From positions 262,475-326,474 of the forward strand of contig NMRA01000490.1 in NCBI GenBank assembly GCA_002633005.1: a DNA stretch of 64,000 nucleotides. The letters run 5' to 3'. Source of the DNA: Phoronis australis (Eukaryota > Animalia > Phoronida). This document shows, one piece after another, positions 11,600-64,000 of the stretch; within the stretch, counting starts at the first letter, position 1; every line of letters begins with the position of its first letter. Under the pieces are notes generated by a model. It made no database searches. It was given only the letters and a program-made list of their open reading frames with translations, and was not told where the DNA came from. Made by a program: the position numbers and the translations under genes.

Positions 11600-11743
11600 G
11601 TTAACCCGCCTCCACCTGTTAACCCGTCTCCACCCGTTAGCCCGCCTCCACCCGTTAACCCGCCTACACCCGTTAACCCGCCTAGACCCGTTAACCCGCC
11701 TACACCCGTTAACTCGCTTACACCCGTTAACCCGCCTACACCC
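11600..11743. repeat. 18-bp minisatellite (gttaacccgcctacaccc), about 8 copies
   Basis: Direct tandem units are visible; they explain the repetitive ORF 11540..11746. Confidence 0.95.
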
Positions 11744-14588: not shown

Positions 14589-14739
14589 CCTCCCGTTCAG
14601 TAACGCTAGGACCTCGCTAAAAAGCAAGACTTCACGAGATTACGTGAGATATTACCGTGTATTTTAAATAAGAACGCGTGACTTTGACTAGGTTTTAGCT
14701 AGGTCCTAGCGTAGGTCCTAGCGTCTACTGAACGCACGC
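14589..14739. mobile_element. About 150-bp MITE present only in copy 1 of the duplicate
   Basis: Copy 2 has the empty site tagctcaggtcaat; copy 1 reads tagctcag[insert]caggtcaat. Inverted arms cgttcagtaacgctaggacct / aggtcctagcgtctactgaacg. Confidence 0.85.
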
Positions 14740-15538
14740 CAGGTCAATGCCACAAAAATATGAAATAATAGAAAGGAAATAGTTTATTTTCGACACTTGT
14801 AAGAAACAAAAATCATGCGTCACAAGCTCGTATCCTGGGATCCAACTACAAGTCTAGCATAATAAATGGCGTTCGCCATTACGGATTTTACTGGACCTCG
14901 GTGTGACGTCAGGTTTTCAACCTGTTGTGTTTATTCGATAATCTTTACAGATCTATTGCAGGCGTTGCATTATTTTAAACAGTGGAATTGTTTGTGTTCA
15001 CTGCGATGTCAAGTAAGCGATGAATTGCTTATGAGTACAGAGTTCAAGAATGAAGTCGAATACAATTGTAAAACGTGGGTTTTGTAGCTTAGTTGTTAGT
15101 CTGCACTTGTGCTCAAAACATTGATTACGGTAGATCTGTTCGGCTCCGTTAAAAGGGGTTGGCCACTGAGACGAATGAATGTCCGTGCATGAAAGCCTCG
15201 GCGAATGAAAAGCTGACCAACGCTTGAAATTAGAAGCATTGCTGGACTTCCGCGTTTCTGTGTAGGGCCTATATCGATACCGAAGTCCCGAAGACGAGTT
15301 AAAGACATTTATATGGAGACTCAGGTTAGATTATCTTTTCGAATTGTTCNGCACTTTCAAAATTCTTCATGTTACGGGCAAAAGGAAAACGGAAGCGAAG
15401 TTAAAGTACGTGTACAACCGCACAATTTAGGTATTAAACGTCGGTACCACACTTTTCAACATATGTCGACGGAAATCATCTTCAGGGAGATGAAAACGAA
15501 CGTTTTGGAAGTAGGATGAGATGTGTCACAATGAGTTG

Positions 15539-15775
15539 CAGAGGCGGATCTACAGGGGGGGTTCAGGGGGTTTAAACCCCCCCCTCGGGACAGGATCAAA
15601 AATAAAAACTGGAAAAAAAATCGCCAGAAAAACGAAATTAGCTACTAAAAATCCCAAAAAATCTTACACGGGAGGAGGGAAACCCTCTCGCGACCTTCCT
15701 TCTCCTCGGCGCTACGCGCCTCGGATTCTTTCGAATCCTAAACCCCCCCTTACTGAAATCGTAGATCTGCCACTG
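15539..15775. mobile_element. 237-bp hAT-like MITE with 5-bp TSD, present only in copy 2
   Basis: TIRs cagaggcggatctac / gtagatctgccactg (13 of 15 match), AGTTG duplicated on both sides (15534-15538, 15776-15780), empty site tgagctgtaatt in copy 1. Confidence 0.92.
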
Positions 15776-18661
15776 AGTTGTAATTGCGAATGATTCCTTA
15801 GAAATTCCCTTGTTGTAAGAGAAGACAACAGACTATTACTATTCATTAAAGGGAAATCGTCGGAGAAAAAAAAGATTTTCTGTGATCAGGCCTCAGCGCG
15901 GAACCGGAACTTGCAACCCTCGCTGTCGCATTACATTTTAAAACTCCGCTTACAGAGTGAGTCCGACTCGAGAAATGACAGTGTATTTTAAGAGAATTTA
16001 ACTAGTAATGCCTCTGGCCATTATGTCAATGAATGATTGAAAGACTACTGTGAGAACTGGCGATTTGTAATGAAATCACAAAAACGAAACATATTTTGTT
16101 GTTGTATGGCTCTGATCAATGCTAATAACTTCAAGAAGTCTTTATCATCCAACAATTATCTAAAAAAATGCGTTTTACGGCCGTAAAATGGATTGTGTCC
16201 CTTAAGTATTCCAATTAGCCAGTGTTGGATTTTGACCATTTATTGTGTCATTGTAATTAAACAATGTCTGACGGCTTAATACTTCACTTCTGACCTCCGT
16301 TTGAACCTTCTCCCGTCTAGCTCAGGTCAATGCCACAAAAAATATGAAATAATAAAAAGGAAATGGTTTATTTTCGACACTTGTGAGAGACAAAAATCAT
16401 GCGTCACAAGCTCGTATCCTGGGATCCAACTACAAGTCTAGCATAGTAAATGGCGTTCGCCATTACGAATTTTACTGGACCTCGGTGTGACGTCAGGTTT
16501 TCAACCTGTTGTGTTCATTCGATAATCTTTACAGATCTATTGCAGGCGTTGCATTATTTTAAACAGTGGAATTGTTTGTGTTCACTGCGATGTCAAGTAA
16601 GCGATGAATTGCTTATGAGTACAGAGTTCAAGAATGAAGTCGAATACAATTGTAAAACGTGGGTTTTGTAGCTTAGTTGTTAGTCTGCACTTGTGCTCAA
16701 AACATTGATTACGGTAGATCTGTTCGGCTCCGTTAAAAGGGGTTGGCCACTGAAACGAATGAATGTCCGTGCATGAAAGCCTCGGCGAACGAAAAGCTGA
16801 CCAACGCTTGAAATTAGAAGCATTGCTGGACTTCCGCGTTTCTGTGTAGGGCCTATATCGATACCGAAGTCCCGAAGACGAGTTAAAGACATTTATATGG
16901 AGACTCAGGTTAGATTATCTTTTCGAATTGTTCATTTTATCGCTCATCAAGCAGATCCTTCAATGGTAGTTGTAGATAAAGGTAACTATTGTATAAATTC
17001 ACTTAAGTCACTTGTGTTAACAAGATGTGTTAAAGGCCGCCAGTTCGTCGAATTTAAACTTTTAACCAGGTGACCCGTCAATGTGAAACGTAGCTGTAAA
17101 ATCCACGGCGATGATTTCCCAAAACTCTTGTTAAAGGGCCGTGTGGTGTGCACAGTTTGATGACCGTGACAATAAGACTAAAATGATCAACACAACCCGA
17201 CAAGAAATGTGGGAAGATTTATAATTAACCTCACGATTGGGTGTGTTGCACTTGTATCGTAACATAGCTGCTGCTCGTCGTCATCATGAAATTGAAGTGT
17301 TACATGATAAGACATGTAGAATTAACGATCGATGTAGAATCAAGAGAGCGAACTTGCACCCCTACTGGAACTATAGATGGCGCTAGTGAATTGAATCAGA
17401 TTTCATTTAGCTTCCCAGTTGTCACCGGTTACCAAAAAGCGATTTCTAACATGTCCATTGACGTTCTGGGAGGAAATATGTTCGAGTCGATGACTTGCTA
17501 TTATTCTGCAGTCCTACATAGTTGCCGAGCCCAACGTAGTAATCGTGAAGTAGACGTTACGAAACATTGCCTCTAAACTTAACTAGCCCTGCGGGTTCTA
17601 TGACCCGTTATAATTTAACAAGACCATCCAGCTTATTCGGCGCTATGATAACTTATGACCAGACAGTCCCGATTGTCGCGTGGCGCGCGAGTTACACGGG
17701 AAGCCTCGCGTGGTAACAGTGTCGCTATTCATTAATAAGATCTTGTTGATCTAGAGATGACGTCAATATCAGGACAAGCAGTCCGTTCTGTGTTAGTGTG
17801 TATCTGCTCAACCCTCCACTGTTTGTTCATGTTTGGAACAGCAAGCTGCCTACATATTTTGTAAGAACTCGACACTCGTGTACACAAACCAGGCTCACAG
17901 TAAAACCAGTAGCACAGGCTTCAAACACTGATGGCGAGGGTGATTTGGCCACCAATCTGAACCTGAAGTTTTGGGGAAACAAAAGTCCTTTTGCTGAAAT
18001 AATGTATTAAGTTAGCTCTGCAGGGACATGGCTAATTAACAAATAAGTGTCTGACTTCTGTCGGATTCGCACCTTTCCAATGTTTTCGAATAATGTTATT
18101 GTAAAGCCGATATCGCTGCTGACGAAACTTGAGTGCGTCAACGATATAACTGGGATTTTGTTTTGTTTTTGCGTAGGATTTCACTAGTTGTGTGTTTTAT
18201 GCTTCCCCGTTGCTATTTCAACTGGACGAGGCTCTATGCAGGTTTGCTTGCTTGTTTTACGAAAACCACCATTTTTAATAATGGAATAACAGTAAAATAT
18301 CCTCCATTAAAAATAAGATGTTGAAAAAATATGAAAACTTCATAATCTCAAAGCAGCCTGTCACGGTTGTTTTTCGTTTTAAATCCAAGCCTTGTTACAG
18401 CCTATTAATGAACAAGCCTCCTGAGTGAACTCACTGCGGATCTAAGATCTAACGGGTAATGCAACCACGATTTCCGAAAGGAAACTGTTCGCGCTACGCT
18501 ACAAACGGCATGTTGGTGACACGTTTTTCCATGTTTTAATCAGTCGAGTCCGTAGGGGAACCTTAAATTCGTATGTCCGCTGTAGGATGCCCGCGTGATC
18601 TTAAGAAAAGTAACTTGAGTGGTGCAGATAGTACTGTTCATAACTACAACAAAACAAGTAA

Positions 18662-21700: not shown

Positions 21701-23034
21701 GCAAGTTATCGACTTCATGGAACTTGCTCAAAGAGCTTCGTTTCGTAGTGAGCAACTGGAATGGTAACTTTTTCGAAGATTTTCGTGCACTTGTCTCACC
21801 TCATTGAGGAAAGGAAATTTGACCGAGTCCTCTGACTGCGATTGTTTTGATTTCAAGTTAACCTCCTTCATTACCGAACAGTCACTGCGACCATGACGGC
21901 GACATCTCGTGCAGTAACTCCTGGTGCAAATTATAGGTAATTGAAATAGTAGAACTCGAATAATACGCTTACGTTTTATGCCACCTATAAATTGCTTAGC
22001 TGCTGACACTGAGTGACACCCCCAAATGAGGAGAAGGCCGTAGTTTGGAGAGGGCCTGCCGCACATGGTTCATGGAGAAACACGGGTACAAACGCTTCCT
22101 TTAATCGAAAACTGGCCCGTAGATTGCCGTTCATGCTGCAAAGAGGATTAACACATTCCGCAGCTGGTCCAGTGTTTATTTTCGATCATCGAAATTGTAC
22201 AGTTTCCACTTGTCATGGGTCCACGTACAGACTGTAACAATACGTGAAGACATCTCCAACTCGGACTCTGAGGTACTGCGATGAATAATAAGCAGGTCTG
22301 ATCGAAGTGTTGACTCTCACCGGACGTTAAAGGTTATTGCAGTGTGGCTATCTTCCTTCTGTACTATCCTGCTTGTCTTCATACCTTCAAGACCATTTCA
22401 ATCACTAAGCGGCTTCATCGGTTGAAATAGTGCATTTCGGGAACGTCTTCCATATACTTTCCGTCAGGTGTCGTGGTTGTTGACGTCTTCCAAGTGGTGG
22501 TAGGCCTACTGTTTCCTTCGTTTAGGCTTACACCTTCTATTGAAAGGATTTTCACAGAGTTATTACTTTCGGAAAGCCAATTTGAACAAGCCATTTTTAG
22601 AAAGTTAATGGGATGTATTTCTTGTCATTCACTGAATTTATCCAAGTCTTCCGAAGAGTGCTTTTGAGGTATTATAGTGATTGTGACGAACAGGAGAGAA
22701 ACATCAAAAAGCTAGAATCACATCTGTGATAAGTTAAACAACTTCTGACACGCAGTGACAACAGATAGCCAAGATTTTCATGCCGCGTTTACTGTATATT
22801 ATGCACTTCGCCAAGTAAGAGTGATTAATTGTCTTCTGCAATTATTAAACTGTCCGTTAGTTCTCGAGAGGCTTCGCTGAGCAAAGCCTTATTTCAATTA
22901 CGTGTTAATCTTCATTGTTGACCTCCATGAATATAGGCAGTCAAGAGACACGATACTAATCTCTTGATTTATGAGTTAAATATCGTACAATAATTGTTAT
23001 ACAACACGACGTGGAGTAATTTCTAAGGTTTAAC

Positions 23035-23223
23035 ATGGCTGCCGGAGTTGCTGCGAATCTCGCCAACAATATTAACAGGCACGACTCGCCCATGATGGGC
23101 AGCCGCGACAGCAAGACACTGTCAAAGCAAGTTTCGGTGCTTGTGGAAGGGAAGAAAATCAAAGTCTCCGATCCCGTGCTCCTTCGAACCAAAACAGTTG
23201 ACGACACTTTCCGTCGCATGGAG
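23035..23223 (+). CDS. Candidate first coding exon (63 aa: [63 protein letters not shown])
   Basis: aacATGG start, GC/CpG-rich coding-like composition, strong phase-0 donor GAG|GTAAGC at 23224, compatible with the phase-0 acceptor at 54655. Confidence 0.75.
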
Positions 23224-26200
23224 GTAAGCCTCGTACGCGATACTGGCAACGAATTGCATTATGGGTGCTTCACTGTAGGCGCCATCTTTGAATAAGTGGT
23301 GTTTATCGCAATGAAACTTCAATTTATTTTTATAACTGCACTATTTATTGGTTTTCAATTTTACGAATTTAACACCAGTTTTTATGTACTGTAAATGTAT
23401 TATTTACAAGATCAAGTTCTCGGTGCTATCGATTCTGGAAATCAATTCTATACAGTTGATAGTGTAGTGAATTGATGCTGTTCTGGGCAAATGTTCAAAA
23501 GATCTACAAGATCGATAAGGTGGTGAACATTTCAAGATTAGCCTTAGCATTGATGTCTCATGGGTGTTTTCACTAATATCAATGGTAGATATCTCAAGAA
23601 CCAATACCTACTACAACTGCTGCATGTTTATTCCCTCGGATGTATGGATATTACCAGACCAACACTTACCTCGTGTTGCCTAAATTGTTTATGAGATATT
23701 GCGCCCTGCGCGTTAATTAGTCAGTGAACGCTCTATTAAAACGTGTCCCGTAGCTGATACTTGTCAGTCAAACTCGTTCTAAGAACAACTCACTAAAACC
23801 TCGGACCACTGATTCACCTCCGGAGCGGGGTTTTTTAGTCCGAGCTAAAACCTGGCGGCAGTTACTTTTCTTTTGGTAACTACATAATGCAACTGATTTT
23901 TTTGCCACTCCTTCTAATAGTTTACCTCACGGTGACCCATGAGTCGGCTTTTCGTTGCACTGAGTTCACTTCAACGATCCTCAACGCAGAATTGCGTGAG
24001 ATTACGAGTTCAATTAGTTTGCTGAAGATTGTTTAGAGAGCGCATTAGCCGCAGGGAACAGTTAAGTGGAACAAAGTTGTTACGTTAACTGCTAGCGGGT
24101 CCTCGCAGCTAATTTCCCACCGCCAAAACTGGCTCCTGCCGCTTCTAGCTTCTCTGAGGAAGCTAATATAGTCAGAAGCCAATGCTCTATTCATTAACAC
24201 TTGCATCGAGTATTAGAGTGGATTAGATTTAATGGCATGCCGAATGTGTCGCCATGACATTTTCAAATAATCTACTCTCGTGTCTTTTATCTGATATCAA
24301 AGACGTGCTGTGTTTCAATGACCGGTAAAATTGAGTCATATTGGTAAGTGCAAAGCGTTTGAATCTGTTTTGGTAAAAAAATGGTGATGATGTTCACGGT
24401 CCCACGATAACCGATAACCCGGGCTGAGCTACGCTGACACAAGCACTGCCTAGCCTGGGTTTCGTGCTTTGCTTGTAATACGTTGCACATGACGATATCT
24501 CCCTAAGGCGTGCTGGGATCTACCAAGTCATCCGAAACACCTCGAGAATTTTTGTAATCTCAAATTGCCCTCGAAAGTAAGTGTTATCTGCACCGGTGCG
24601 AGCTTCAGTCATATTACCAAACATTGTGTCCAGTTAGAAAGTCACATAACGCGATGACTGATGTCCGCACATGCGCAGACAACGTAACTAAAGGAAATAT
24701 GAAGCCACGAAACTGCTCGAGGTGTTCCGAATGCTTTACATTTAACATCCAGAACAGCTCGGGTATCTTCCTAGCCTGAAATGTTAGGCCACGTAGGCCC
24801 TAAATACCCGATTTGTTCCTTGGCCGGATGCAGGCCAGTTATCGAACCTACACCATGTCTTTTTAAATACAGTTACACAGCATATAGTTTTGTAGTCGGT
24901 AAAATGTCGATTTGCTGATGACTGTGTTGGAGTCGATACTCGATCCCGAAATCATGTTACCGATTTCCTGTACGAGAATATTTGAAAATTTCAGACTTAC
25001 TATTCAGTATTTAAATCTAGTTATAGATAGTGATATTCCACGCACATACATTTAACTATGTCTCTTTTATTTTGTGTTGGATATTGTAGTATACGTTGTT
25101 TGGATTAACTGTCGTGTTTACGTCATTAGCGTATGGAAAGCATTGGTTGGCCTTATTATAGAAGATCTATTTTGAGGGAGGAATATATATATAGGGTAAA
25201 TGCACTAATCTTTATCACAGCGTTAAGGTATCGCTGTTCTGTGTTCTGAAAATTTTCCTCTTTGAATAAAACGAGTATTGTTAGCTCATGCATGTGGCTA
25301 GTGGTCAGTGCGGTGCTTTGTAATCCGTTTTTTCAGTTCTCCGGTTCTCTATTGTAAAATTGCGCCTTGGCTTCGCCGCACGGGTACCCGAGACAGTACC
25401 ATGCGATAGCAATCGTGACAGGACTGCCTGCACCCCGGTCCCTCCCCCAACTAACAACTAAAACGAGAACGCAATTGATCAAATAACTCACTCGAAATTA
25501 TACCGAGAAGGCAAAATACTCAGGCACCCGCATTAGAGAGCCCCGCCACTGAACCTGCGTAGGCCTTCATTCCAGCCGTCTTTCGGAAAAAAGCTCCAAC
25601 AAAGACATGTGAAATTGTAAATTGCAATTTTATTAAAAAATGTTTATTCGGTATGTTTAGAATTTGTAATCTACATGTGAACTATTTTTCGTGTATTGGG
25701 ATTTAGCCGATTTTTCAAGTTAGGCCTACTCCCGTCCCAAGGCAGTACCACTCAGGCGCATCTATGGAAACAGTAACGAGCAGCATCTACTGCTGATTTT
25801 TAGGAAAATCGACATTACGTGAGAATGCACAACTTTGTAGCCCTTGCGTTTAGAACCCTATGAATATGCAGCATCGATTACAGCCAATATTGATCTTCCC
25901 CGAGGAAGCAACAACAGCCGGTTTCAGAAGCTCATCCTCAGATTCACGCATGTGTCGCCATCTAACGTCAATGTAAAGTAGCGATAAGCGACCTCCTATC
26001 CAGCATCTTAGATTGTGGACTAAGCTGCAGTGAAAAGATTGCATTGGAAACTGTTATTGAGGTTCATGGGAGAAAATGCCACATACAATGACGATCTATC
26101 CGAAAAATTTCAACGGAACTTCAAATGTTGGTAGGCGTATTAGGCTAACGCTAAGCCCCAAAACGGTAACGCACTGATGCCGACTCTTTAACAATGCTCT

Positions 26201-29200
26201 CGATATTTCGCCGCGATTATGAGTTCTTACTTGTAGACAGTGATTTTTGAGAAAGCTCTTAACCTCTTTTGAAAAAACTTCCGACTGTCTTGCCGAGTTC
26301 AGGCTAAAGTCGGATAATGTTCGCACTGGAATAGGTAGTGCAATAACCCCCCGCGCTGCTTTCTCAATCAGAAAATAATTATGCCAAGCTACCCGTATTA
26401 TTTGGATTAATAACGATTTCTTGGCTGGTGAAGAATTGACAATTCTGTATTTCTTCGAACCAAGCTCATTAATTTTCTGGAATCATTAACTTCCTAACAA
26501 CTTGTGTGTGTTATGGTGGTCAAGCCAGTCTCGCCATCTGGTGACTTGCACAGGTTGATGTCAGCCTCCGAATCGGTACGAGTCCGCCAGAAGTCGTAAA
26601 TTATGCAACTAGTTTCAATTCTAGGTAATAACGAGAACACAGTGGCATTTGGAACTACAAGCCAATGTGAGATTCATGCACTTGTTACTATCGTATATGC
26701 GCATTTTAAACCCATAAACTGCACCAAGTCCTATTTTCGGAATGACGTAACCTCCAATTAGGAATTTTGTGTCATCTTGTTCTATAGCGAGTGTTTCTGG
26801 CTTCCTGGTACCAGTTAAACCAAAAAACAACTGAGGCAAAAGAGGTGCTGTCGCTTACAACGGGCTGGGGATTGCCGTCGCGAACGCGACAAATGTCCAC
26901 GTCTTCAAACAGAATTACTGGGACTTTGTGCGTGGTTCGTTACTGTGGACCTCAGCTCATTACTATTTCACTCTATTTTATTTTATTTATTTAACAAATT
27001 TTACTAATTTTAAACTAATTCACTTTATTAGCTTTTCGATCTAATTGTACATAGCTGTCTGTATTTTATTTCATGTAATTATTTCTGACTGGTCCCACTT
27101 GAAAATTAGTGTATACACTGAAGGGGTCTTTTAAAGAAGTTTAAATAAATAAATAAATACTCAGTTTAGGGATAACCGCCTTCTCTTAGGCGCATGCACC
27201 TATACATCACTTGAGTATAAAGTACATTAAAAATTTGCAACACACGTGGGAGTGGCGGGTATACAAATAGACGAGAAAAGACTATTTGTTTATAAAATTC
27301 CTGTGAATCATAACTTAAATTATAACCTTATTTGTGTTTAGGAAATGAAAATAGGAATTTCTTAAAAACGAAATTAACACTCCGACAGGTGAGGTTAGCG
27401 GCTGTTGACAATAGTTTCGTCTTAGGCTATATTTAGTATTGAAGACAAACAATAGGTAGCGCAGTAAGCATTGCACTAAGCATTGATTTATTAAACTAGC
27501 ATGTTAACGATAGTTTTTGCGAATATTCGGCCTATTTGTTTTTTGTGTTTGCTTCTGTTAAAAATCTATAAGCAGAGTAAATTAGATGTCATATGTTTAG
27601 TTTTGTTCGCATCGACTGTGCGAAATTTTAGAAGTCAGAATGAGTACTTAGTTCTTATTGGATAATGATAACGAGTCTCGCCATAAATGGAGTGTGATAC
27701 CAAAAAGCTGACCGATGTGTGATCTGGATGTTGTTTTGTGAAACATTTTGGTATGCCATGTGCTAGTTTGTTTGAAGCAATCTTTGGACTGCGACATGGC
27801 TTCAGACAAGGACGATTTAGAAAGTCGCGAAGGGTCTGAATCGACAGTAAGTTTTAGCAGGCGTATATGTTGCCTGCAACCAACCATGCGCATGTCTCAT
27901 TCATTAGTTGCCCGTTTCTGTATCGCATCGGGACTAAGCATTTTGATTTTGATTTTGCCCGCTCATCACATCAACACTGTATGCGCAAAATTTCGTTAGG
28001 CGAATTGCCAGTTTTGAGTCTTGGTCAATTTGTAACTTTGTAGACGTAGTCGGGCTACAGACTCGATTTATTCGATCTCCCACCAGCAGTTTTGCTATAG
28101 ACTGTAGGCAACTTATTGCCTGTAGGGCGTTTTAATCTAATCAAAGAGTTTTGATTTGTTTTTGATGTGTCTAGCTCACTTAGTGTTGATTTAAGGATCA
28201 ACCTCTTGATCAAATTATTTCTTTTCCAATTAATTTGCCATTGCAGGCTTATAATATGGCTGACAATGTTGATATACTTGTTTTATCATTTCATTCTATT
28301 CCATTATTTCTTTGAGAGAAAATGAACTTAATTTAACTTTTGATGAAGCGAACTCATTTTTAGAAACCAAACAGTTAAAATATCACGAAGCTCAGTCTAC
28401 GACATTGCAATTAATTTCTGTAAGTGTGTTATTGGTACAGTCACCCCTTATGTTCAAAGCTGCCAGTCGCTCAACACAGAAAGAAGTTAGATCAGTGTTG
28501 ACGATAAGCAGAATTGATGACGCCAACAGTTTTTATACAAATCTATTGAAGAAGGTTTGATGAAACTGGCCGAGTACTTAATGTTCAGCTATCATGATCG
28601 GATCTCTGCACAAGTTCAAAAAGATGTCATTAGTAACGGGAATGAAACCCTAAAATAGATTCTGGCCGACTGGTCACCCGTGACATGAATTTTATGAGCT
28701 TAGTCTGAGGAAATAACAAACAGCTTGTCCTTTTCAAGCCCAAAAGTCACTTTTTTGGACTCGGGAGCAATTTGAGACTAATTTCATAACGGCAAGTGGT
28801 CTAAACAAAACATGATTTTTTGACAGCTAAATACACAAGCTTAATGCCAGTTTAGTGCTGGTTTTAGAAATAGAAATTTTGTAAAACACAATCCACCCCA
28901 TTTTCACTTGGCAATTTGTGAACGTGGTCAATGAGGTTAAACTTTTTATTTCTTGTGGGAAGGTACGGGATGTGCTACTGTGACTAATAATTTATACACC
29001 GTCAATCCTATCAGGAATGCCAGGTGGGAAAGATTAAGGTCTTACCAGCTGTACACCTGAACTGTTTCTTTTTATGTTGATATCACATGCAATATGGTTT
29101 AACTCATCAATAATAAAGTCATTTGTAGAAAGTTCAAATGCAATTGGACTGTTGTTGTGATTTACTTGTGGATTAAATGCATTTGGTAGAAATTCTGAGC

Positions 29201-44200: not shown

Positions 44201-47200
44201 GCCCCTGTCTGGTCCTGGAGGTGTGCTTCATTACATTGGTCATGGTCTGGTGATCCTAAATGACCTGATGTGACTGTTGACTGTCAAGCTACAGTTTATA
44301 TAAATTCAAGAAAGGGTAAACACCTCCTTGCACATCCATCTGTAACTTTGAAAGTGGTCTTTGTGTTTAACTGGTCAAGAAGGATGATGAACATGAAGGA
44401 TGATGAAGCCAGGTTTCCATTGGTGGCGGACAAAGCCAGCAAAGGTTCATTGGGGCAATGTCTGTGCTGGTTTTGCTTCCATGTAGTACGTAGTCTCGGA
44501 TATTTGATATCTATCTGTTGTCATTAAAAAATTATTGTCGCTGCGTTGTTGGTCAGCTGTATGGGCAGCCATATTCTACACTCCCAGTGTCTTGTGTTGC
44601 TGGGTTTGAAGTTGTGGGATAAGTTGCCACTTATAGTGTGTATAGGACCTTAGTTAAATACGGACATGTCCATGTACCGTAGTTAGCCAAAGATCTGCTA
44701 GACCATGGATTTTAACTTCGTAAAAGTATTTTGCCTTGTAGAAGAAAGCTTGAAGAATTTCAGTTTCAAATTTGTACTAATCTCCCATTATTTGAGTCAC
44801 GTGATCGTGTTTTTTCTTTGAAACGTAGCAAAAAAGAGAGTCACTTTCACAGCTAAACAATTGTAACAATACTGTATTCAAATTGCGTTTCATATAAATG
44901 TTCAAAATGAATTAATCAAAAAGGTTACAGTTTTGTAATTCTTCATTTTGACTTCATTTTATGCATCTTTTGACTATTTTTTGTTAGCGCTTATGCAGAA
45001 GTGGAGCTGTTTAAAACAATCGCTAACAGCATTTTGGAGAATAGTGCATAAAGCATTAACTTTCATATAAATTCTCTCAGAAATTTCTGAATTATGATTT
45101 CCAAATTTTGCCAGATTTAGACTTTTTTCAAGGGTCCTTACATAACCTTAACCGCCAAAGAAAAACCTTTGAGAACTACTTGCAAAGTTAAAGTTACTTT
45201 TTTGTTCTTGCGAGGATTTTCCTTCATTTTATCCTAAAAGTTGCTCAAAATATCTCCTCCTGTAGAGACTTAATTGAAAGTGAAACTCATCCCGCCACCG
45301 GAATATGAGGACAGGTTCTACCAAAAATTGTACACCGTGTCGGCCATCTTGTGCCTATATTTCTTCTTGTTGTCATTTGGTGACTAAATTGTGATGCTAT
45401 CTCCTGTTAAATTCACTAAACATTTTTGCTTGGGCAAAGTTAAGCTCATGGTGTTCAGCCCTGTTTATCCATTTGCTACCTTACATGCAATTTAGTTTGT
45501 AGAATGTGACATTTATGTGTGAGAGTTTTCAAATACAGTTGAAGGAACTTGGTTAAAAGTTCACGACCTGAGAGGTCGTGAACTTTAGTGGATATGTTTG
45601 TTGAAGGTCTTCCTGATGTCTGTTGGTGATGGGCTCTTTGTTGTATGTAGCCCTGCATAAATGTTGTGTACAGCTGGTCCCTCTGTATCCAGATAGGCTT
45701 CATGGAGTGTGGTCAAGTATTTATAAACACAAGTCACTGACCTAGGGATTGTGAACTGGTGATGTTGACCAACCCCATGATTATCATCACAGAATTAGTG
45801 TGAGCTCCAAAACAATCACCTCTCATTGTACAATCAGTGGATCATGCATCACTGGCAAAAATCTCGAATCATGGGTCCAGCGTCCACCGACATGTGACCC
45901 CTCACCCTGTTGGTGATAGTGTTGAAGAGTGCTCTCTCTCATCCACCAATTACATTAAACAAAATTCAAATGAAACATTCAGAGAATTTACTTAATGCAC
46001 TTGTCTCCAAAACTCCATTAGGAATTGTTTTTAAACTGATCTACTTTTGCTATAGAAAGGCTTTCAAAAATATGACTTTAATTTATTTTTGTTATGGAAA
46101 AAATCACAATTTGCATTAAACAAAAACAAAATAATGACTCAGAAAACTGTAACAGTGTTTTTGAGATTTTATCTTGAACATTTCTATCAAACATGCTGTA
46201 CATCTTGCTGTTACTATGTTTCATTTTTGCTAAATTTATCTAAAAAACCTCAATTTGTGACAGATTGGCTTAAAATAAAAATTATTTGCATGCTTTCTGC
46301 CTGCAAAACATACGTTCACTTGTAATTCTACATGCATGGCTGAACGCACTGACTTATAGATGAGCGCCTACATAACCTTCACAGAAGACTGCTCTCATAC
46401 AGGAACTGTTTCAGCTGCAATAAAACCCATGAGATGCTATTTACCTTCAGCTTATCCCTCATTACACATTGTCAGTTGTGTGTATTCAGTCCAGGTGAGA
46501 AAATAGTCCCACGCTATTTTTTGCACCTCAATAGTTGTTTACGTTAGCCGTTTAAATACGCCAACCCTGGTAGTTTATTGGTACATTAAAGGTTTCTCTG
46601 CGCAAACCAGTTTTATTTGATTAGGGCTGGCAAATTTGTGCTGAGATAAAAATCCAGTCTAAGGGTGCACTTACAGTGAAGATCTTTGAAGGCAATAACT
46701 TTTGACAGAGGGACATATATCGCCCAGTGTTCAGTCTTATTAGATTATATGCTCTGTGATTTAAATCAACAACACAGTATATGAATATTTGCATTAATAT
46801 CAGGCAGGTATTTTTAGCCGAGCTGTGTTCAGGTATTCAGTCACCTGTACAGGGGGTTTTGTTGCCTATACTGCTGGCTGTGGTTAGTGTAGACATAATG
46901 TGAATGCTGAGGAGTTAATGTAAATGTCTTTAAAAGCAAACATTTTATGATTTGCAATACTTTGCCCAAAACGATGAATGAAATGAATTTTGACTAATGT
47001 ACTTTCAACGTTTTGTTGTGTAATTACTATAGCGTTACCATGGAGATAGAGCCTTGAGATTGCTGCTTACTTACTTATTATATCTAACAATATCTATTTT
47101 AATATTAAGTGCCCCTATCATGCTTTTGGATATTTACAGTAGCCTAAATACCACAAGAGACTGCTGAAGTATTAATACAACATAAACATGTAACATGAAG

Positions 47201-53200: not shown

Positions 53201-56200
53201 CTAGAGCCATAATGTCTGTAGTCATTAAGTAGTTAAAGAGCTGTATCATGTCATGTAGCACTATAAGCATTAGCTGTGTTCTCATGGATTTTGAAATCCC
53301 TGAACTGTGTCTGGGAAAAATTACTGTCAGTGTCTCCAAGTATTCCTACTGACTTCAGAATACTGTTATTTTTCTCACTCTGTTGGCAAGCATTGACATT
53401 ATACTAAGTACTTTCAATTGAGTAAACAAACCATGGTAATTTATTAATGAAATTTCCGGGTTTTTAGTTCACGCAAATAACTGGTAAATCTTCTCCCAGT
53501 GCAATATTTTCCTATTAAAACTTAAGCAAATGTGTAGAGGACAATGGGGAACAGGCAGCTGCGGCTCAATGAGGAGCCACTCCTCAACCAGCCTTCAGAG
53601 CTGTACTCTAGACCTTTGGGTGTCCACCATCTAATGCAATATTCTGAACTAGCCTGTATGTTTCTATCGTCAGCCTGTTCAACAGCTACTGTGTTGTAAA
53701 AACGACCATGTGATCAGTGACCTAATTGTGATAGGTGCACTTAATGTAGCAATCATGTTCATCTTAATTGCCATGTTGAATTCAAAAGGAGAATTACTAC
53801 CAGCACAATTTGTCATTAATGTTGAACTCTACAGTCTTGTGGAGTTATAGATGTCTGGGGGGGGGGCATTACCTTGTAAACCGCAATTGTCTTAACGAAC
53901 TGAGCATCCGTAATTTTACAAAAAAGACACGGAAATTACAAAAAAGACACGGTGGTCATGTGACCAAATTAATGATAGACTGATAAAAAGGTCAAGTTCT
54001 ACAGGCTTCCTACTTTCGGAATTATATACCTTTACCAAGTTGACATCTGTAGTCTGTGTGATATTTTGGTAACTGTACAGACTTGTTGATATGGTTGTCC
54101 CTAACCTTAACAGTTTCTCCTCTGTAATGCATTGCAGTGCAGTGGGGTGAAGTTATACTGAAACCACTCTCCTATTTTTAAGAACAGTCACCTGTAATTA
54201 CCATGTGAGCAGGTGCAGCTCATCACAACCTTCACCCTCATCAAGTCAGTCACACCTGTTTTATATTTATCACTCCGGTGGGGTTCTTAATGGACTTGGT
54301 GTAGATAACTCAAAACATCCATTTCAACTGTCTGTAATATTTCCTGTTCCTGTTGCTGATATATACCTGTTTGGGCCCTCCTGGAACTCTGTTCATTGAG
54401 TAAGGCACTTGCCCCCAAAACGATAATAATAACAATAATGATAATAAATATAAAAAAGAATAATTATAAAAATAATAGTAGCATCAGCAAAGGCAATGTC
54501 ATTGATATGATGAGGATAACAATTGTAGGGATATTAATAATGGTAATAATAATATTAATAATGATGATGACAGTTATAGTTGTGGTAATGAGATTGATTA
54601 TGATGATAATAATGATAATAATAGTAATAACGCATATATTGTTTATGCTTTCAGGAGCTGGTGGGAAGCAATCCTACTGAGAGGAACTGGCGCGGGATCT
54701 GTATCGCTCTAGTCGTCATATTGATTGTATGCGGCCTCATCACTACAGCGGCCATATTGGTCAACCCAAGTAGGTCCTACCTCTCATTATTGTTTGTTTG
54801 TTATGCAACTTCACGCAAGGCAGAGATTTTTGTGTTCTATTTCTGTGTTTGAGGTCTGTGAAAATGCACCTGGCAGTTTCATTGAGAACACCCTGCAGTG
54901 CATGAAATGAGCTTTTTAAAGGGCAATTTAAGAAGCCCACATGTATGCAATTTTAAAAATGACAGCTACCATTTTTAAGAATACATGTCCATGATTATCC
55001 CGGAGTCATTATTCCAGCAGGATATTGTGTTTGCTCCACAGAAGGGAATGGAGAATTAAGATCTGATCTTTTGCTGTGCCCGCCCACGTCAGATTCTATT
55101 GTTCCTATGGTTACTAAATAGTCTCCATGGGAACGGTAATTAACACAAAAAATATCTCCACGGTAACCAAGGATAAGTATTTTTTACTAAACGTCACATC
55201 AAAAACGGTTGCGCTCCCCTGTAATCTAAAGAAAGGCTAATTTTTTTGTAGTGGAACCGTTTGATTCATGTTTTTGAGTGGCTGAACCATGTGTTTTGGT
55301 TCTTCAATACAGAGAGCTATCACTCCTAATTCCCTATGATAACACTGTAGACAGAATGGAGCTCATTGATTGCTTCATCTGGAACATTCACTGCTAATAA
55401 TTTGATTTATTCCAGTTTGGAGTTCAGATGATTTTGGCTTAACCTAATTAGCACTGTTGTGGAGAATCGTTAACAGTACATGTGAGATAGTTCAAGTTGG
55501 TGTTAATTAATTGTTTACAGAGAAGGTGAAAAAATACTATGGAGAAAAGTTTTCGTTTGATGACATATTCCTAGCAAGAGATCTAGAGAAAGTATTTGAC
55601 CCACAGTGGTTTACAGGTACGTGGACTGTGGGGACACCTTTTGGTGAGGACTTGAGCTAGTTTGAGTGCACATTGGCGCTGATTATTCAAAGTTGTTGAT
55701 CAAGTTGTAAAACGAAAATCAATCGAATCATTGACGAAGTTAAATTAATAACTCTTTTGAATTGTAAATGTGGAAGTTATCAAGTCACTCTGTACTAATT
55801 TGTTTTTAATCTTTGAAATGCCCTTAAAGATACATAGTATATTTTTAAGTGGAATAGGCTTTAATCTGAAGGCATTACTTTGTGCTGTCAAACTTAACAT
55901 TGAATAATTTATCCATGTTACTCTAAGATTGTTTCTTTAATCTATCCTGTCGTCCACATGAACTCTCCTGTCAGTGTCACGAGGTGGCGCTATTTTTGTT
56001 GTAATATTTTCTCATGGGCTGTAATTCATTCCATGTTTTTGGCCTAACAAACGTACAAATTAAAGTTCTTGCAAGCACTGTTTTTATTGAATAGAGTGTT
56101 ACTCCCAGGAAAAGAATTGTGTTACACGAGAAAATAAGTACCAGTCGTGAGAGAAGGATCCGTACGCGGATCATGAGGCAGGAAGATTACGTGTCTCTGC

Positions 56201-59200: not shown

Positions 59201-62200
59201 ACGCTACCCCTCGGTAAGTTGATCAGCCGTGTTATAGTTACAGTGTTTTGCTGCTTGATTTTTATGAACAAAAGTTCGGTATCATTCAATGTGCAGCAGT
59301 ATATCTATCTTGCCATTTCCAGTCACATCAACAGGAGATATACAACGAGCCGTCTAATGAAGACTTACTCCATCGAGATCTTATTTTGAAAGCTTGTTTG
59401 TGTGATAAAGGTTATTCAAATTGGAACCCAATTTGCAGCACAGTAGGATTTCATTGGATCAAAATTTTCATGAAGAGCAAATGAGAAAATTTTACTTGAT
59501 TCTTTGAAAAGTTTTTATACTACGACTATCGTCAACAAACACATTGAGAGGTTGTGAACACTCTTGACAGTACAGTGAGAGGTTATGAACACTCTTGACA
59601 GTACAGTGAGTTGTTGTTGACACTCTTGACAGTACAGTGAGAGGTTGTTAACACTCTTGACAGTACAGTGAGAGGTTGTGAACACTCTTGACAGTACAGT
59701 GAGAGGTTGTTAACACTCTTGACAGTACAGTGAGAGGTTGTGAACACTCTTGACAGTACAGTGAGAGATTGTGAACACTCTTGACAGTACATTGAGTGTC
59801 TTAAAATAAAAAAATGACAATTTTGCTGTTATTTTGGTTTAAGTTTGTGTAAACTTTACTGTGCACATAAAGCAAGACATAGCATCAGGTGATTTCCTGT
59901 TCAAACACTACAAAATTCTTCAGTGGTATTGAGATCACTGAGACAAAAAATCTGATTGGACGTTTATGAGTACAAGTCAAGGCAGCCTATTATGTAAGGG
60001 TGCAGACAGTATTATTACTATCAGTCTTCTCTGTTTCTCGGTTGGTGTATTGGCGGTAAAAGTATGAGGAGATTGTGTTATTCAACAGTTCTGGATCATT
60101 AAGTGTTGCCCTTTAACAGGTTTGTCCCTCTTTTGCGGATTGTATGTCTGACCTACTTATCAAAATGTCAGCCACTCTTCAGTTAATGATCAAGGGAAGA
60201 ACATTACATTGCTCATCCAGCGCTGATATTTGTCAATTTCCTGGTGTCAACATTGCGACTCAAAGTGCAGTAAATCCCAAATTCGTCTGCATTACAATGA
60301 TGTTGCATAATAATTAGGATATGAGACTAGTACGTTTGCCTGTGAAGAAGCAGGACAAGTGCTTGGCACACATGTTGCATTGTGGGTAAATACGTTTGAA
60401 CAAGAGTTGTGCTGCGCTGTTTTAGGACGGGCCGTAACACCTGGTGACTTTGTTAAAAATAACTCCGGACGTACTTATGTTTTCAGGCGGGTGATCCCCA
60501 TGCAAACAACAATCCTACAGTAAAACTGATGATTGTTACCAAAACTTCCGACCGTGTGGTCAACGTGGAAGTCTCCCCACTACAGTCACCCTTCCAGAAT
60601 CGGTGAGCGGGCTTCCTTTGTCCAGTGCCAATTTTTCCTTAGGATGCTGGCGAAGGTTAATAGTACCTGCCAGAATATGACACGTTTACCCCATACGGGT
60701 TATTCAAATTCTTATTGACTTCAGCGGTAAATAACTTTTATCAGGATGCTGTGTACGTGTTATAGTCTGTTTCTTACTTAGTCATCCAATAGAAAAATGA
60801 TAAATTTGTCAAGAGCTCCACCTAGTGACAATCACTACCAAAGAAGATGGCAGCCAGACAACAGCCACTGAAAATTTCTAGTGGAAATTCTCAGTTTTCT
60901 ATTGAAGGGGTAGTATGAAACAGACATATTGACTTTGTTGATAATAATTACAAAATATATTACTTTTGTTCATTAGAACACGTGATACACAGAAACGGCC
61001 ACAAAATATTAGACTTGGATAAAAGAATTTTATTCATAAATATTGTAATAAGACGGTTTGGTATAATTTTTGTGTTTTTGACCAAGTCTCAGAAAGTACT
61101 GAAAGTGCTGTGATTGTTCCTGCAGACAACAGTATTACTTCACGGCTGTGACGTGGCGGGACGATGACAAACTAGTTGTGGTGTGGTTGAACCGTGCTCA
61201 GAACCATTCCATATTCACGCTGTGTAATGCAAGCACCGGTGAATGTACTGAGGCAAGTGTTTGTCTGTTGTGTGAGTCTGTTGAGGGTTAGGATCACTTG
61301 TTAATGTGTCGATATGGATCCTGGCGGGGTTCTGTTGGCGGGGTGATCATTATATAATACATAAACATGCTGTTCGGTTATCTTACTGATATTTTGCCAT
61401 AATAAAGGAATACTTTTTCACAATTATAGCGTAATTGACTCGGGGTAGCTGTGAAGCAAGTTGTCTATGAAAATGTTCCTGGTGATGTGTCTCTAGGTGT
61501 GCTTACGTCATTGTTGTGGAATGGTGTAGGTTAATTCTTTAATTACAAGTATTGTTTTCAGATCCAGCATGAAGAATCAAAACACGGCAAAGGTTGGGTG
61601 GATGTGGTGAGTTCTACTTTTTTCCATTCCGTGCGACCCATTTTGAGTGTCGTAATCGTTCCCATGCAAACTGTGTTTCCCCCTTAATCACCTCCATCCT
61701 GCCAGAACACTGACGCCATTTTGTGGAAACATTCTCTGAAAGAAGCTTTGTTGAATCTGACAAAATGAAACCAAATCGAAGACCGTAAATTTTGTGGAAA
61801 GTCTGTAAAACTGGCATATTTCACATATTATCGAAGCTGTGTAGCTTATAAGCAACAAGTGGAAAACAAAAACGACACCAGATTGTACCTCAGAAACGTC
61901 ATTCAATATTTGCAACTATCGTCAGTTATAATAGTTAAACAGAATAGGACAAACTGCTATAACATAATGTTCACGTCACATCACAGTGTACCTCTCAGCA
62001 TGGGGAGTCTGTATGTTTGTTTTGCACTGTGATGTCATGTGAACATTTTGCTACAACAATCTGTTCTATTCTGTTTGACTATTGTAACTGAGAATGATAT
62101 TTCTCTAACATCGAAACAACCTTTTTATGCTGCACTCTAGTTATCTATTTCTCACTTCTAATTTATCCAAAAACTAAAATTACTCAGACGTCTGTTATGG

Positions 62201-64000
62201 ATGTTGTTATGCATTTGTGTAAACTTTTGTTTCCATGGTATTTTCAGTGAATTGTTGGAAATCAGAAATTTTGCTTTAGCTTAACTTTACTTGAACTCAT
62301 TACCATACTTATTGTTTTCATGAATGAATTCAAAAATTGTGTAAGTATTAAAACAAAATGATAATTTGAAAAACTTGCAAAATTGCTTTTTTCGATTTCA
62401 TCTTAAACATTTATTCAAAAGACAGGAAAAATTGATCATGTTGTTTTGCTTAGAATGTACTTTTCTGTTTTGCTAAGTTTTACTACAAGGACACGGTCAC
62501 GTGACCCAACTAATGACAGACTTGTGCTGTAAGAGAGAAATTTTATGTGCTTTTTAGGTTCAGAATAAATTGATATACCTTTACTGGGTTAAAATCATAC
62601 ATTTTGTGGTTATTTGGCTAAATACAAAGATTTGTCAATAAGCCCTGCATACCCTTAAGTGCACTATAATATTTGTTCCTACAGAGCCAGCCTCCCTTGT
62701 TCAATGGTGCAAGAGACGTGTTCTTCCAAATACTGCCTGACCGGCTAACCTCACAGGACTACTTCAAACACATAGCTAGGATCACTGTCCCAGTAGGTAG
62801 TGTGCAGGCGTGTTTCTTATGAGTAAATCTGTGCCATGTAAGACCACTGAAATTGGCGACACAGAAGCTAAGATTTTGCGAGTGAGCTCGATACCTTGGT
62901 GTGGTAGACTAGCAAAATAGCCACCAATGAAGTAATTGGTCACGGAGGCTAGGATGTGGAATTATGGGAGAAATGTGCAGTCTCGATTTCAAAAATGAAG
63001 ATTTCTGGCCACAACTGCAAGTGTCTTGTAGTTTTAGAAGTCAGCTCTGTTGGTCTCCTCATGCGATCTTGATGTATGTTGTTTACTCACATTATATTTA
63101 AAACGGACGCCTGATAGTGGTTACAGTCCCTTTTAAAACGCACTTTAGCATTGACCCATTCATAATGTAAGGAGAAAGCTTAGTTTTAGATGGCAAAGTT
63201 TGGCCATTCTTGTATTTATACTAGTAACGCTGTACGGCATAATTTGGTTATGTATTCTTAGACTGGTAACATTTGCTCATAGGATGACAAGGCTGGTGAA
63301 CGAACATTCATCACTTTGGGTTTCTGGGATGTTGTAAGCTTGTTGGCTTACAACACCAAAGAGAAGCTTGTATACTACATCGGCACTGGAGGTGATCCAC
63401 GCAAACGGCACCTGTACAGGTGAGTGTGCACCTCAACTAGTGTAATCCTGAAGATACTGGTTCAAATACTGACCACTGTTTTCGACCAATCACGTGGTAT
63501 CTGACCACTGTTTTCGACCAATCACGTGGCATCAAATCACATTTCTATGATTAAGCCAGTCAGCTGTAAACCAATGTGGTATTCAACCAAGTGTTTTGAG
63601 TAGGTTTACTCGATTTCGTTTCAATGTCACAATTTCCTCAACATTCTCCACACTACTCTGGCTGACAGTTATACTCTTTTGGTTTGAATATTCACTGTGT
63701 GCTGATGAGTTAGGCATGCATCTTTTAATTTTTTATTTATTTATTAATGTAATATTTACAATGAGGGTTGGTCTGTCATGAAAGTGGTGTACTCAGGGAT
63801 ATTGATGTTGAAATGTGTCACAATTGAATGGTCACCGTGGCAACCAATGCTGTACATGATCATTCGCAGAATGTTTGTTTGATGCCTACCCTTTATCTTC
63901 AGCGTCGGTGACATTGATTCGTCAAATCGTCGTCAAGTGACTTGCCTGTCATGCAACATCAGTGCTGATTGCCAGTACGTGTCGGCCGTGTTCAGTCCAA
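23035..64000 (+). CDS. DPP10: DPP6/DPP10-like dipeptidyl aminopeptidase-like protein (S9B family, type II membrane), multi-exon, 3' end outside window. Model: join(23035..23223,54655..54769,55521..55616,56345..56442,56839..56913,57451..57600,58091..58211,59053..59213,60487..60602,61126..61252,61562..61606,62685..62792,63283..63419,63903..>64000)
   Basis: Manual splicing gives one open frame with AG acceptors, GT donors (one GC) and matching phases at every junction. It contains [38 protein letters not shown] (cf. DPP6 [29 protein letters not shown]), [50 protein letters not shown] and CLSC, all DPP4/6/10 propeller motifs. DPP6 and DPP10 cannot be told apart; probably an invertebrate co-orthologue. 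Confidence 0.93.
24510..24756. mobile_element. Degenerate inverted-repeat (MITE-like) element
   Basis: catccgaaacacctcgag (24529-24546) is an imperfect inverse of ctcgaggtgttccgaatg (24716-24733); outer ends uncertain. Confidence 0.5.
26960..27159 (+). mobile_element. Probable 3' tail fragment of a non-LTR retrotransposon (CR1/L2-like)
   Basis: T-rich tract, short structured segment (ggtcccacttgaaaattagtg...actgaagggg) and terminal (AAAT)n tail; no RT coding sequence seen. Confidence 0.4.
27796..27846 (+). CDS. Candidate alternative first coding exon ([17 protein letters not shown])
   Basis: gacATGG start, phase-0 donor ACA|GTAAGT at 27847, located at the CpG-rich to CpG-poor boundary. Confidence 0.6.
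38247..38320. repeat. Perfect 37-bp tandem duplication
   Basis: catatgtcaatctgttggatgctgttgttctatccaa x2. Confidence 0.95.
39281..39644. repeat. Degenerate minisatellite, about 38-bp unit (taagtttggtttgcatattttttaagttaagggg...), about 9 copies
   Basis: Recurring tttggtttg...ttttaagtt at regular spacing. Confidence 0.8.
40338..40508. repeat. 19-bp G-rich minisatellite (aagggagggggacatgttc), about 9 copies
   Basis: Direct tandem units; they explain ORF 40285..40698. Confidence 0.95.
42560..43600. repeat. About 15-bp minisatellite (atagaagtctgtgca-like), interrupted by an insertion
   Basis: Units at about 42560-42655 and 43130-43600; they explain the QTSIA-repeat ORFs. Confidence 0.9.
42657..43127. 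mobile_element. About 470-bp MITE inserted in the minisatellite
   Basis: Imperfect TIRs gggtctttcatact ... aatatgaaagggcc, TA on both sides, CpG-rich interior unlike the CpG-poor flanks. Confidence 0.7.
48868..48929. repeat. 17-bp tandem repeat (ggataagtaccncttag-like), about 3.6 copies
   Basis: Direct inspection. Confidence 0.8.
49148..49309 (+). CDS. Candidate alternative first coding exon (54 aa: [54 protein letters not shown])
   Basis: gtcATGG start, protein-like composition in a local CpG-retaining patch, phase-0 donor CAG|GTATTC at 49310. Confidence 0.6.
54422..54630. repeat. Degenerate (ATA/ATG)n trinucleotide microsatellite just upstream of the shared acceptor
   Basis: Low-complexity ataataatgatgata tract; explains the Ile/Met-rich ORF 54396..54680. 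Confidence 0.9.
54655..54769 (+). CDS. DPP10: First shared exon: juxtamembrane segment and transmembrane anchor ([38 protein letters not shown])
   Basis: tttcag acceptor, 115 nt, phase 0 to 1, donor gtaggt; near-identical to the DPP6/DPP10 TM exon. Confidence 0.96.
55521..55616 (+). CDS. DPP10: Shared exon ([31 protein letters not shown])
   Basis: tttacag acceptor, 96 nt, phase 1 to 1, donor gtacgt. Confidence 0.9.
56345..56442 (+). CDS. DPP10: Shared exon ([32 protein letters not shown])
   Basis: ctttcag acceptor, 98 nt, phase 1 to 0, donor gtaagt. Confidence 0.9.
56839..56913 (+). CDS. DPP10: Shared exon ([25 protein letters not shown])
   Basis: tttcag acceptor, 75 nt, phase 0 to 0, donor gtaaat; SPD motif. 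Confidence 0.93.
57001..57207. repeat. Diverged tandem repeat, about 92-bp unit x2.3 (intronic)
   Basis: cagtacaggttgtt...gaaggtggtgca...ttcc recurs at about 57001, 57091 and 57185. Confidence 0.8.
57451..57600 (+). CDS. DPP10: Shared exon ([50 protein letters not shown])
   Basis: ttccgtag acceptor, 150 nt, phase 0 to 0, donor gtaagt; YRH and WSPxG motifs. Confidence 0.93.
58091..58211 (+). CDS. DPP10: Shared exon ([40 protein letters not shown])
   Basis: ttacag acceptor, 121 nt, phase 0 to 1, donor gtgagg; NGxxDWLYE signature. Confidence 0.96.
59053..59213 (+). CDS. DPP10: Shared exon ([53 protein letters not shown])
   Basis: ttttcag acceptor, 161 nt, phase 1 to 0, donor gtaagt; completes DWLYEEE; ALWWS and FNDT motifs. 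Confidence 0.96.
59546..59793. repeat. 31-bp minisatellite (gagaggttgtgaacactcttgacagtacagt) x8 (intronic)
   Basis: Highly homogeneous head-to-tail units with no spacers. Confidence 0.97.
60487..60602 (+). CDS. DPP10: Shared exon ([38 protein letters not shown])
   Basis: tttcag acceptor, 116 nt, phase 0 to 2, donor gtgagc; completes YPxAG..NPTVKL. Confidence 0.92.
61126..61252 (+). CDS. DPP10: Shared exon ending at a GC donor ([42 protein letters not shown])
   Basis: cctgcag acceptor, 127 nt, phase 2 to 0, donor GAG|GCAAGT; WLNRAQN motif. Confidence 0.9.
61562..61606 (+). CDS. DPP10: Shared short exon ([15 protein letters not shown])
   Basis: ttttcag acceptor, 45 nt, phase 0 to 0, donor gtgagt; H-E...GWV motif. 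Confidence 0.9.
61918..62096. mobile_element. Foldback or MITE-like hairpin with about 70-bp arms (intronic)
   Basis: tcagttataatagttaaacagaatag...atgttcacgtcacatcacagtg pairs with cactgtgatgtcatgtgaacat...ctattctgtttgactattgtaactga. Confidence 0.8.
62685..62792 (+). CDS. DPP10: Shared exon ([36 protein letters not shown])
   Basis: cctacag acceptor, 108 nt, phase 0 to 0, donor gtaggt; PxF...FxHI motif. Confidence 0.9.
63283..63419 (+). CDS. DPP10: Shared exon ([45 protein letters not shown])
   Basis: ctcatag acceptor, 137 nt, phase 0 to 2, donor gtgagt; ITxGxWDV and PRxRHLY motifs. Confidence 0.94.
63469..63532. repeat. 32-bp tandem duplication (intronic)
   Basis: ctgaccactgttttcgaccaatcacgtgg(t/c)at x2. 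Confidence 0.93.
63903..64000 (+). CDS. DPP10: Shared exon truncated by the window end ([32 protein letters not shown])
   Basis: tcttcag acceptor, phase 2; CLSC...C...FSP motif of the DPP4 family. Confidence 0.94.

Follow-up and report, generated by a model that had tools for sequence, protein, structure and literature searches.

Does a DPP6/DPP10-type subunit of an invertebrate carry a mimic of the inactivation peptide of its own partner channel? The window, by which we mean the whole stretch of 64,000 nucleotides analysed here, contains a gene of this type, and a distal candidate first exon of that gene (exon 1a) opens with MAAGVAANL, a sequence resembling the start of vertebrate Kv4 channels. 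The initial annotation proposed that this isoform may mimic the inactivation peptide of its partner while lacking the residues by which KChIP holds the channel, so that it could restore fast inactivation in KChIP-bound channels.

The vertebrate background of that proposal agrees with the literature, as given in the available portions of the sources. KChIP holds the Kv4 N-terminal segment through W8 and F11, and the segment of Kv4.2/Kv4.3 that serves both inactivation and KChIP binding is A2-R35 (PMC8566240). DPP6a and DPP10a block the pore via MNQTA, and Cys13 is conserved (PMC3366920, PMC3968176), while DPP6S binds S1-S2 of Kv4.2 through its transmembrane helix (PMC8566240). Alternative first exons on a common DPP6/DPP10 (DPLP) core are a known vertebrate pattern (PMC3973911). 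The DPLP balls are dominant and cell-type restricted, 2 of 9 mammalian DPLP variants being described as balls, and known balls work without resembling the N-terminus of the channel itself in sequence. The balls of Shaker likewise have little sequence specificity; they require non-polar residues at positions 4-8, and positive charge within residues 12-20 speeds binding.

A DPP6/DPP10-type gene

The conserved part of the gene lies at the 3' end of the window:

54655..54769, + strand: exon 2, common; juxtamembrane segment and transmembrane helix of DPP6/10 type; RNA joint 54769-55521
55521-55616, 56345-56442, 56839-56913, 57451-57600, 58091-58211 and 59053-59213, + strand: exons 3-8, beta-propeller; RNA joints and Pfam DPPIV_N
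60487..63419, + strand: further propeller exons, predicted; the start of exon 9 agrees with RNA loose ends

By sequence the gene is of the DPP6/DPP10 type (S9B), as the initial annotation had it. A PDB search with exon 2 matched DPP6 at E 1.4e-11, and DPP4 is absent from the 12 chains listed at E<=10. Exons 2-8 are linked by six GT-AG joints in three RNA runs. Pfam DPPIV_N (PF00930) matches all five of the propeller exons given, four of them above the curated cut-off, and propeller exon 8 scores 43.8 bits to DPP4 versus 26-27.6 bits to DPP6. The hydrolase domain falls beyond 64000, outside the window.

With vertebrate DPP6/DPP10 (PMC3973911) the gene shares the DPP6-type juxtamembrane and transmembrane exon 2, the DPPIV_N propeller and the use of several first exons. 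It differs in being from an invertebrate, in the higher score of its propeller exon 8 to DPP4, in having no MNQTA in any of four N-termini, and in having one first exon with two donors in two frames. Drosophila DPP10 is the nearer comparison in one respect: in the accessible part of its description (PMC4873792) it too combines a DPP6/10-like transmembrane region with a more DPP4-like ectodomain, and it binds and modulates Kv4. The same part describes no Kv4-like N-terminal variant. The catalytic serine, lost in vertebrate DPP6/DPP10, is kept in the fly, according to the portions of the literature available. By analogy, the product of the present gene would also bind and modulate Kv4.

The CpG observed/expected ratio is about 1.05 up to about 28000, near exon 1b, and about 0.5 from there on. 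GC skew is steadily positive from about 28000, close to exon 1b. The CpG drop and the turn in skew likely show where gene-body methylation begins and where the main promoter lies. The CpG pattern would point to exon 1b as the main promoter and to exon 1a as restricted. A mosaic CpG pattern speaks against a vertebrate genome, and a vertebrate host was rejected on the ratio of about 1 outside the gene body. BLAST against the 119 Shal loci described below, an Rfam search with two weak miRNA-hairpin matches far under threshold, a tRNA scan, repeats and k-mers pointed to no particular phylum.

At 56638-56913, reads of runs X1 and X2 extend across intron 4 to exon 5; they carry a deletion of 11 bases at 56810, and the loose end before 56638 has a sequence absent from the window and no AG. 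A structural allele or a retained intron is the likely cause.

First exons and their use

Upstream of exon 2 we distinguish the following features:

23035..23223, + strand: exon 1a, distal candidate first exon, 63 codons; phase-0 donor at which one read ends; presumed join to exon 2
23035..23061, + strand: Kv4-like start MAAGVAANL, residues 1-9 of exon 1a; RNA reads over the motif: 0
23032..23043, + strand: motif over the exon 1a ATG, presumably YY1-like/Kozak, encoding the M-A-A start; motif class over-represented in the window
27796..27846, + strand: exon 1b; encodes 17 residues of acidic character; the first exon used most in the runs examined
44384..44485, + strand: exon 1c; its donor at 44444 closes 15 codons read from 44400, its donor at 44485 closes 34 codons read from 44384 in another frame; seen in X1 only

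Runs X1-X3 were each read to 18-19%, and the counts at the exon-2 acceptor comprise loose-end groups of three reads or more. The 19 loose-end reads listed at the acceptor (54655) all trace to the exon ends 27846, 44444 or 44485, and none matches exon 1a. The end at 27846 accounts for seven reads of X2, four of X3 and about two of X1. Four X1 reads match the donor at 44444 and about two match 44485; the latter, with the two matched to 27846, make up the remaining four loose ends of this run, whose mixed consensus is exactly what a 2:2 tie between the two ends gives. RNA reads thus splice three donor sites in two exons (1b and 1c) to the common exon 2, and exon 1a is ruled out as the main first exon. 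Exon 1c yields a short basic and aromatic start of 15 residues via 44444, and via 44485 a start of 34 residues with a Cys-rich hydrophobic patch at its end.

Around exon 1a itself, nine reads fall on 22400-24000 (six of X2, three of X3, none of X1 or X4), and none of them covers 23035-23061. One X3 read spans about 23175-23224 and then diverges from the genome, at the donor 23223. It fits splicing to an exon that opens with G but not with GT, such as exon 2. The junction from 23223 to 54655, which the initial annotation had put forward for confirmation by RNA-seq, is not confirmed by this: the one read fits use of the donor, its partner was not seen, and the 19 listed acceptor reads lead elsewhere. 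Of the informative reads, exon 1a accounts for roughly one in 20. Upstream of it, at 22400-22811, lie six X2 reads in the sense direction, probably one fragment in three copies; they could represent a long 5' UTR or a promoter further upstream.

Anatomy of exon 1a

Read directly from 23035-23061 (+), at the head of exon 1a, the start is MAAGVAANL as first annotated. The whole of 23035-23223 is open for 63 codons and ends in a phase-0 donor, GAG|GTAAGC, which scores highest among the ATG-to-GT candidates with a good start context 5' of exon 2. The first ATG has A (a purine) at -3 and G at +4, GC climbs sharply at this ATG, and only 0.36% of the 189-nt windows before exon 2 are as GC-rich as exon 1a. 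The open frame, the good ATG context and a donor used at least once (one read) make exon 1a a plausible first exon, in line with the initial annotation. Immediately 5' of 23028, upstream of the ATG, lies TTTCTAAG, and a second ATG at 23095 (Met20/21 region) also stands in a good to strong context.

The codons of M-A-A belong to an ATGGC-type motif class that is the top over-represented 8-mer of the window (9 versus 0.9), a longer form occurring 3 versus 0.22 times. A second copy of the presumed YY1-like/Kozak motif lies at 23279-23288 on the minus strand. PMC3429435, in its available part, reports an overlap of this motif class with start codons of human promoters.

Exon 1a has Asn at positions 8, 11, 12 and 14, and Ile at 13. 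A single-sequence structure model places a helix at residues 3-13, a hairpin at 32-45 and helices thereafter, at low confidence (pTM 0.24), and a fold search with this model gave no match. A Pfam search with the peptide gave none either. PDB searches with 63 or 20 of its residues at E<=10 returned no Kv4 chain, and ribosomal S20 scored above any Kv4 chain. Sequence searches found no relatives of exon 1a. These searches carry little weight, since the same route barely retrieved the conserved exon 2 (only one protein and no Atlas match), although exon 2 matches DPP6 in the PDB at E 1e-11.

The match to Kv4 starts

MAAGVAANL matches the MAAGVAAWL of human and mouse Kv4.2/4.3 at 8 of 9 positions, residues 1-7 and 9 being identical. 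The identity claimed at the outset thus holds for human and mouse KCND2/KCND3, whose starts are given in the available part of the PMC3519636 supplement. It also holds that exon 1a is without the W/F KChIP anchors: it has Asn at position 8 and no F11, and W8, P10 and the WLPF...GW core are absent, with 0 core matches even at three mismatches. A Shal gene start anywhere in the window was rejected on the same result, 0 core-motif matches with three mismatches.

The distribution of the vertebrate form is narrow. The accessible part of the PMC3519636 supplement has at least 19 rows with the Kv4 core motif, and MAAGVAAWL occurs in four of them, all human or mouse, and in 0 of its 13 listed invertebrate rows. 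Protostomes there start mostly with MASVAAWL, amphioxus with MAAVAAWL, urchin with MAAAWL and Nematostella with MAADVVAWL. Among five anthozoan Shal1 rows in the supplement of PMC9989356, the vertebrate start is likewise absent (0/5), and MAAGV occurs nowhere in that file; Nematostella is present in both published sets. We also collected at least 119 Shal loci by a core-motif scan of metagenome contigs (35 of 64 parts), a scan that misses starts without the core motif. MAAGVAAWL was found in one of the 119, a vertebrate Kv4.3-like locus with a CpG observed/expected ratio of 0.4. The other 118, all non-vertebrate, agree with MAAGVAANL at no more than 6 of 9 positions, with or without one gap, and the published amphioxus start agrees, by eye and allowing a gap, in 7 of 9 columns. 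Searches for Kv4 sequences from hemichordates, tunicates and further echinoderms returned none; these groups, apart from urchin, and the Shal of the host lie outside this comparison set. Across the 119 loci, 3 to 7 residues precede the conserved W, in 19 forms, and the core after W is nearly fixed; seven residues precede W in both anthozoan and vertebrate Kv4 starts.

Specific mimicry of the native channel is unsupported by this distribution, because the host is not a vertebrate and the vertebrate start is absent from the 118 loci and from 18 published invertebrate rows. Here the initial annotation finds no support: among the sequences compared, the form matched at 8 of 9 positions is found only in vertebrate Kv4, and the invertebrate loci reach at most 6/9.

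Taken as a single pair, an 8/9 match exceeds chance: its model probability is 1e-8 to 6e-7, calculated with residue frequencies of the gene itself or with assumed Ala-rich ones. A 6/9 match to an anthozoan-type start has a model probability of 3e-5 to 3e-4 per pair. Given four N-termini, dozens of partner peptides and some 250,000 windows, a match of such a kind would, on our rough estimate, be expected about once.

Properties of the tip

Among the four N-termini, a hydrophobic tip free of charge is peculiar to exon 1a. Its first charge comes at residue 15, and the other three starts are charged by residue 5. Over residues 1-10 its hydropathy is +1.50, compared with +1.42 in vertebrate Kv4 and -0.9 to -1.5 in the other three starts, and its first ten residues are non-polar and uncharged as in Shaker balls. 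The positive charge of those balls in residues 12-20 is lacking; this stretch has one Arg and one Asp, net 0. Residues 1-20 together have a net charge of 0 and a hydropathy of -0.14, versus about +1.2 for Kv4. Neither MNQTA nor Cys13 is present in exon 1a (Ile13). An MNQTA-type exon elsewhere in the window was rejected, no M-N-[QEH]-[TS] frame occurring on the + strand before exon 2.

A weakly Kv4-like tail

Behind the tip, a second and weaker likeness was noticed by eye, and its tests are hence post hoc:

23086..23187, + strand: residues 18-51, weak in-register likeness to the Kv4 linker and T1 start; borderline alignments, predicted hairpin at residues 32-45

The Shal N-termini comprised 89 distinct sequences; the tests used the 61 of them that have T1 in frame and left out the other 28. 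A Shal profile scored 1.2 bits against the tail, a value reached by 155 of 2000 shuffles, and the best local score over the 61 N-termini was reached by 23 of 500. Against three anthozoan-type loci chosen after the fact, the score of the tail was reached by 17 of 5000 shuffles and by none of 217 windows from real proteins or 301 ORFs of the window. An alignment anchored at Met1 joins residues 1-51 to residues 1-58 of an anthozoan-type Shal, with one 7-residue gap over the KChIP-binding core and a score of 33. As the best of 60 non-vertebrate Shal, this score was reached by 0 of 600 full shuffles and by 12 of 600 in which the first nine residues were fixed and only the tail was shuffled. Vertebrate Kv4 also falls into this register. 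In the alignment of residues 18-51 the identities number 10 of 34; the DNA is identical at 38 of 102 positions with no third-position excess, and beyond residue 51 its identity drops to 7 of 36.

Possible origins and roles of exon 1a

The explanation that we place first, at a little under an even chance, is that exon 1a is an ordinary minor N-terminal variant, a non-blocking tail whose 8/9 match to Kv4 arose by chance from a start of small residues. It is suggested by a DPP6-type exon 2 and by alternative first exons on a common core, the vertebrate pattern also found here; by a Kv4 likeness that ends at residue 9, with no MNQTA, no Cys13 and net charge 0 over residues 1-20; and by M-A-A codons that lie within the top over-represented 8-mer class of the window. 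Promoter switching would put cytoplasmic tails of 63, 17, 15 and 34 residues on one transmembrane helix. Through the shared helix the subunit would bind S1-S2 in the voltage sensor of Kv4 and speed gating as DPP6S and fly DPP10 do. Within a restricted cell type, the tail of 63 residues would adjust gating or trafficking to the surface, like tails of the DPP6K/L type, without plugging the pore. The caveat attached to the match from the start, that it may be coincidental, is accordingly favoured as likely, with a target of the vertebrate lineage and a likeness that stops at residue 9. What counts against chance is the low probability per pair, the sole uncharged tip, and a tail in register with Kv4 better than in 588 of 600 shuffles. 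A rather unlikely alternative that takes up the uncharged tip is a generic, convergent N-type ball: by analogy with the balls of DPP6a/DPP10a, the tip, on a tether of roughly 75 residues, would move into the pore of open Kv4 and give KChIP-bound channels back their fast inactivation, its Kv4 likeness arising because the pore selects such residues and not from copying. A hydropathy close to that of vertebrate Kv4 and unlike that of the other three starts would suit such a ball, as would the loose sequence requirements of Shaker balls, with non-polar residues at 4-8, in the sources available. DPLP balls are moreover known, dominant and cell-type restricted, and exon 1a is little used and sits outside the part of the gene depleted in CpG. 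As with exon 1a of DPP6a/DPP10a (PMC3366920, PMC3968176), it is a minor first exon that gives a DPLP an uncharged tip, and would by analogy act in KChIP-bound Kv4; it differs in its 63 residues and in lacking MNQTA and Cys13. This absence weighs against a ball, together with the Asn residues at 8, 11, 12 and 14, a net charge of 0 and the negative hydropathy over residues 1-20, from which binding would be weak, and the small share (2/9) of mammalian DPLP variants described as balls in the available literature.

The likeness of the tail bears on a further account, which we regard as improbable: that exon 1a is a captured Kv4 5' end. A duplicated piece of Shal (N-terminus and T1 start) would have gained a donor, kept its tip and shed the core that binds KChIP, namely W8 and some seven residues after it, so that the isoform would carry a KChIP-proof copy of the channel's ball. 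The Met1-anchored score and its shuffles, the results with the three anthozoan-type loci, the common register of vertebrate Kv4, the predicted order of helix, hairpin and helix, and the seven residues before W in anthozoan and vertebrate starts alike are all in its favour. Its weaknesses are that the likeness is post hoc, that local and profile scores are reached by 23/500 and 155/2000 shuffles, and that identities number 10/34, with no excess at third positions of the DNA and no likeness beyond residue 51. Ribosomal S20 outscores Kv4 chains in the PDB and no fold matches; V-x-G-K hairpins are common; and the best partner is an anthozoan-type Shal, the host not being shown to be a cnidarian. 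Compared with A2-R35 of Kv4.2/Kv4.3 (PMC8566240), exon 1a is without W8, P10, F11 and the conserved core that follows. Together, the two readings in which the tip is functional come close to the ordinary-variant reading. We give least weight to the view that MAAGVAANL is not a free N-terminus at all, owing to rare splicing noise, another splice partner, an acceptor near 23027 joined to an exon further upstream, or translation from Met20/21. The single read, with none over the motif and the partner acceptor not seen, is compatible with it, as are the sense reads at 22400-22811, TTTCTAAG before 23028 and the strong context of the ATG at 23095; the strong context of the first ATG, the GC rise at that ATG, the 63 open codons and a strong donor in the right phase speak against it.

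At a minimum, the gene extends to an invertebrate a device known from vertebrates, the switching of promoters to give a DPP6/10-type subunit different cytoplasmic tails, here with four unrelated N-termini. DPLPs with alternative first exons have been described before; the invertebrate member is what is new. If the tip blocks the pore, it would be a DPLP ball unrelated to MNQTA, and residues 1-9 without W8/F11 would form a natural experiment separating N-type inactivation from KChIP binding. If exon 1a descends from Kv4, it would represent exon capture from a binding partner. A literature search, with most subscription papers outside its reach, returned no report of a DPLP tail resembling a Kv4 start, nor of partner-exon capture in the Kv4 complex.

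Other features of the window

A local duplication of about 1.5-1.7 kb with 96-98% identity lies at 13861-16637, around the single N of the window, and represents a recent tandem duplication or an assembly join. An intronic hairpin at 61967-62046 weakly resembles a plant miRNA family on both strands, at 33 bits against a threshold of 100, and is probably a small inverted repeat. Minisatellites occur at 11599-11743, 40337-40508, 43264-43600 and 59541-59796, with periods of 18, 19, 15 and 31.
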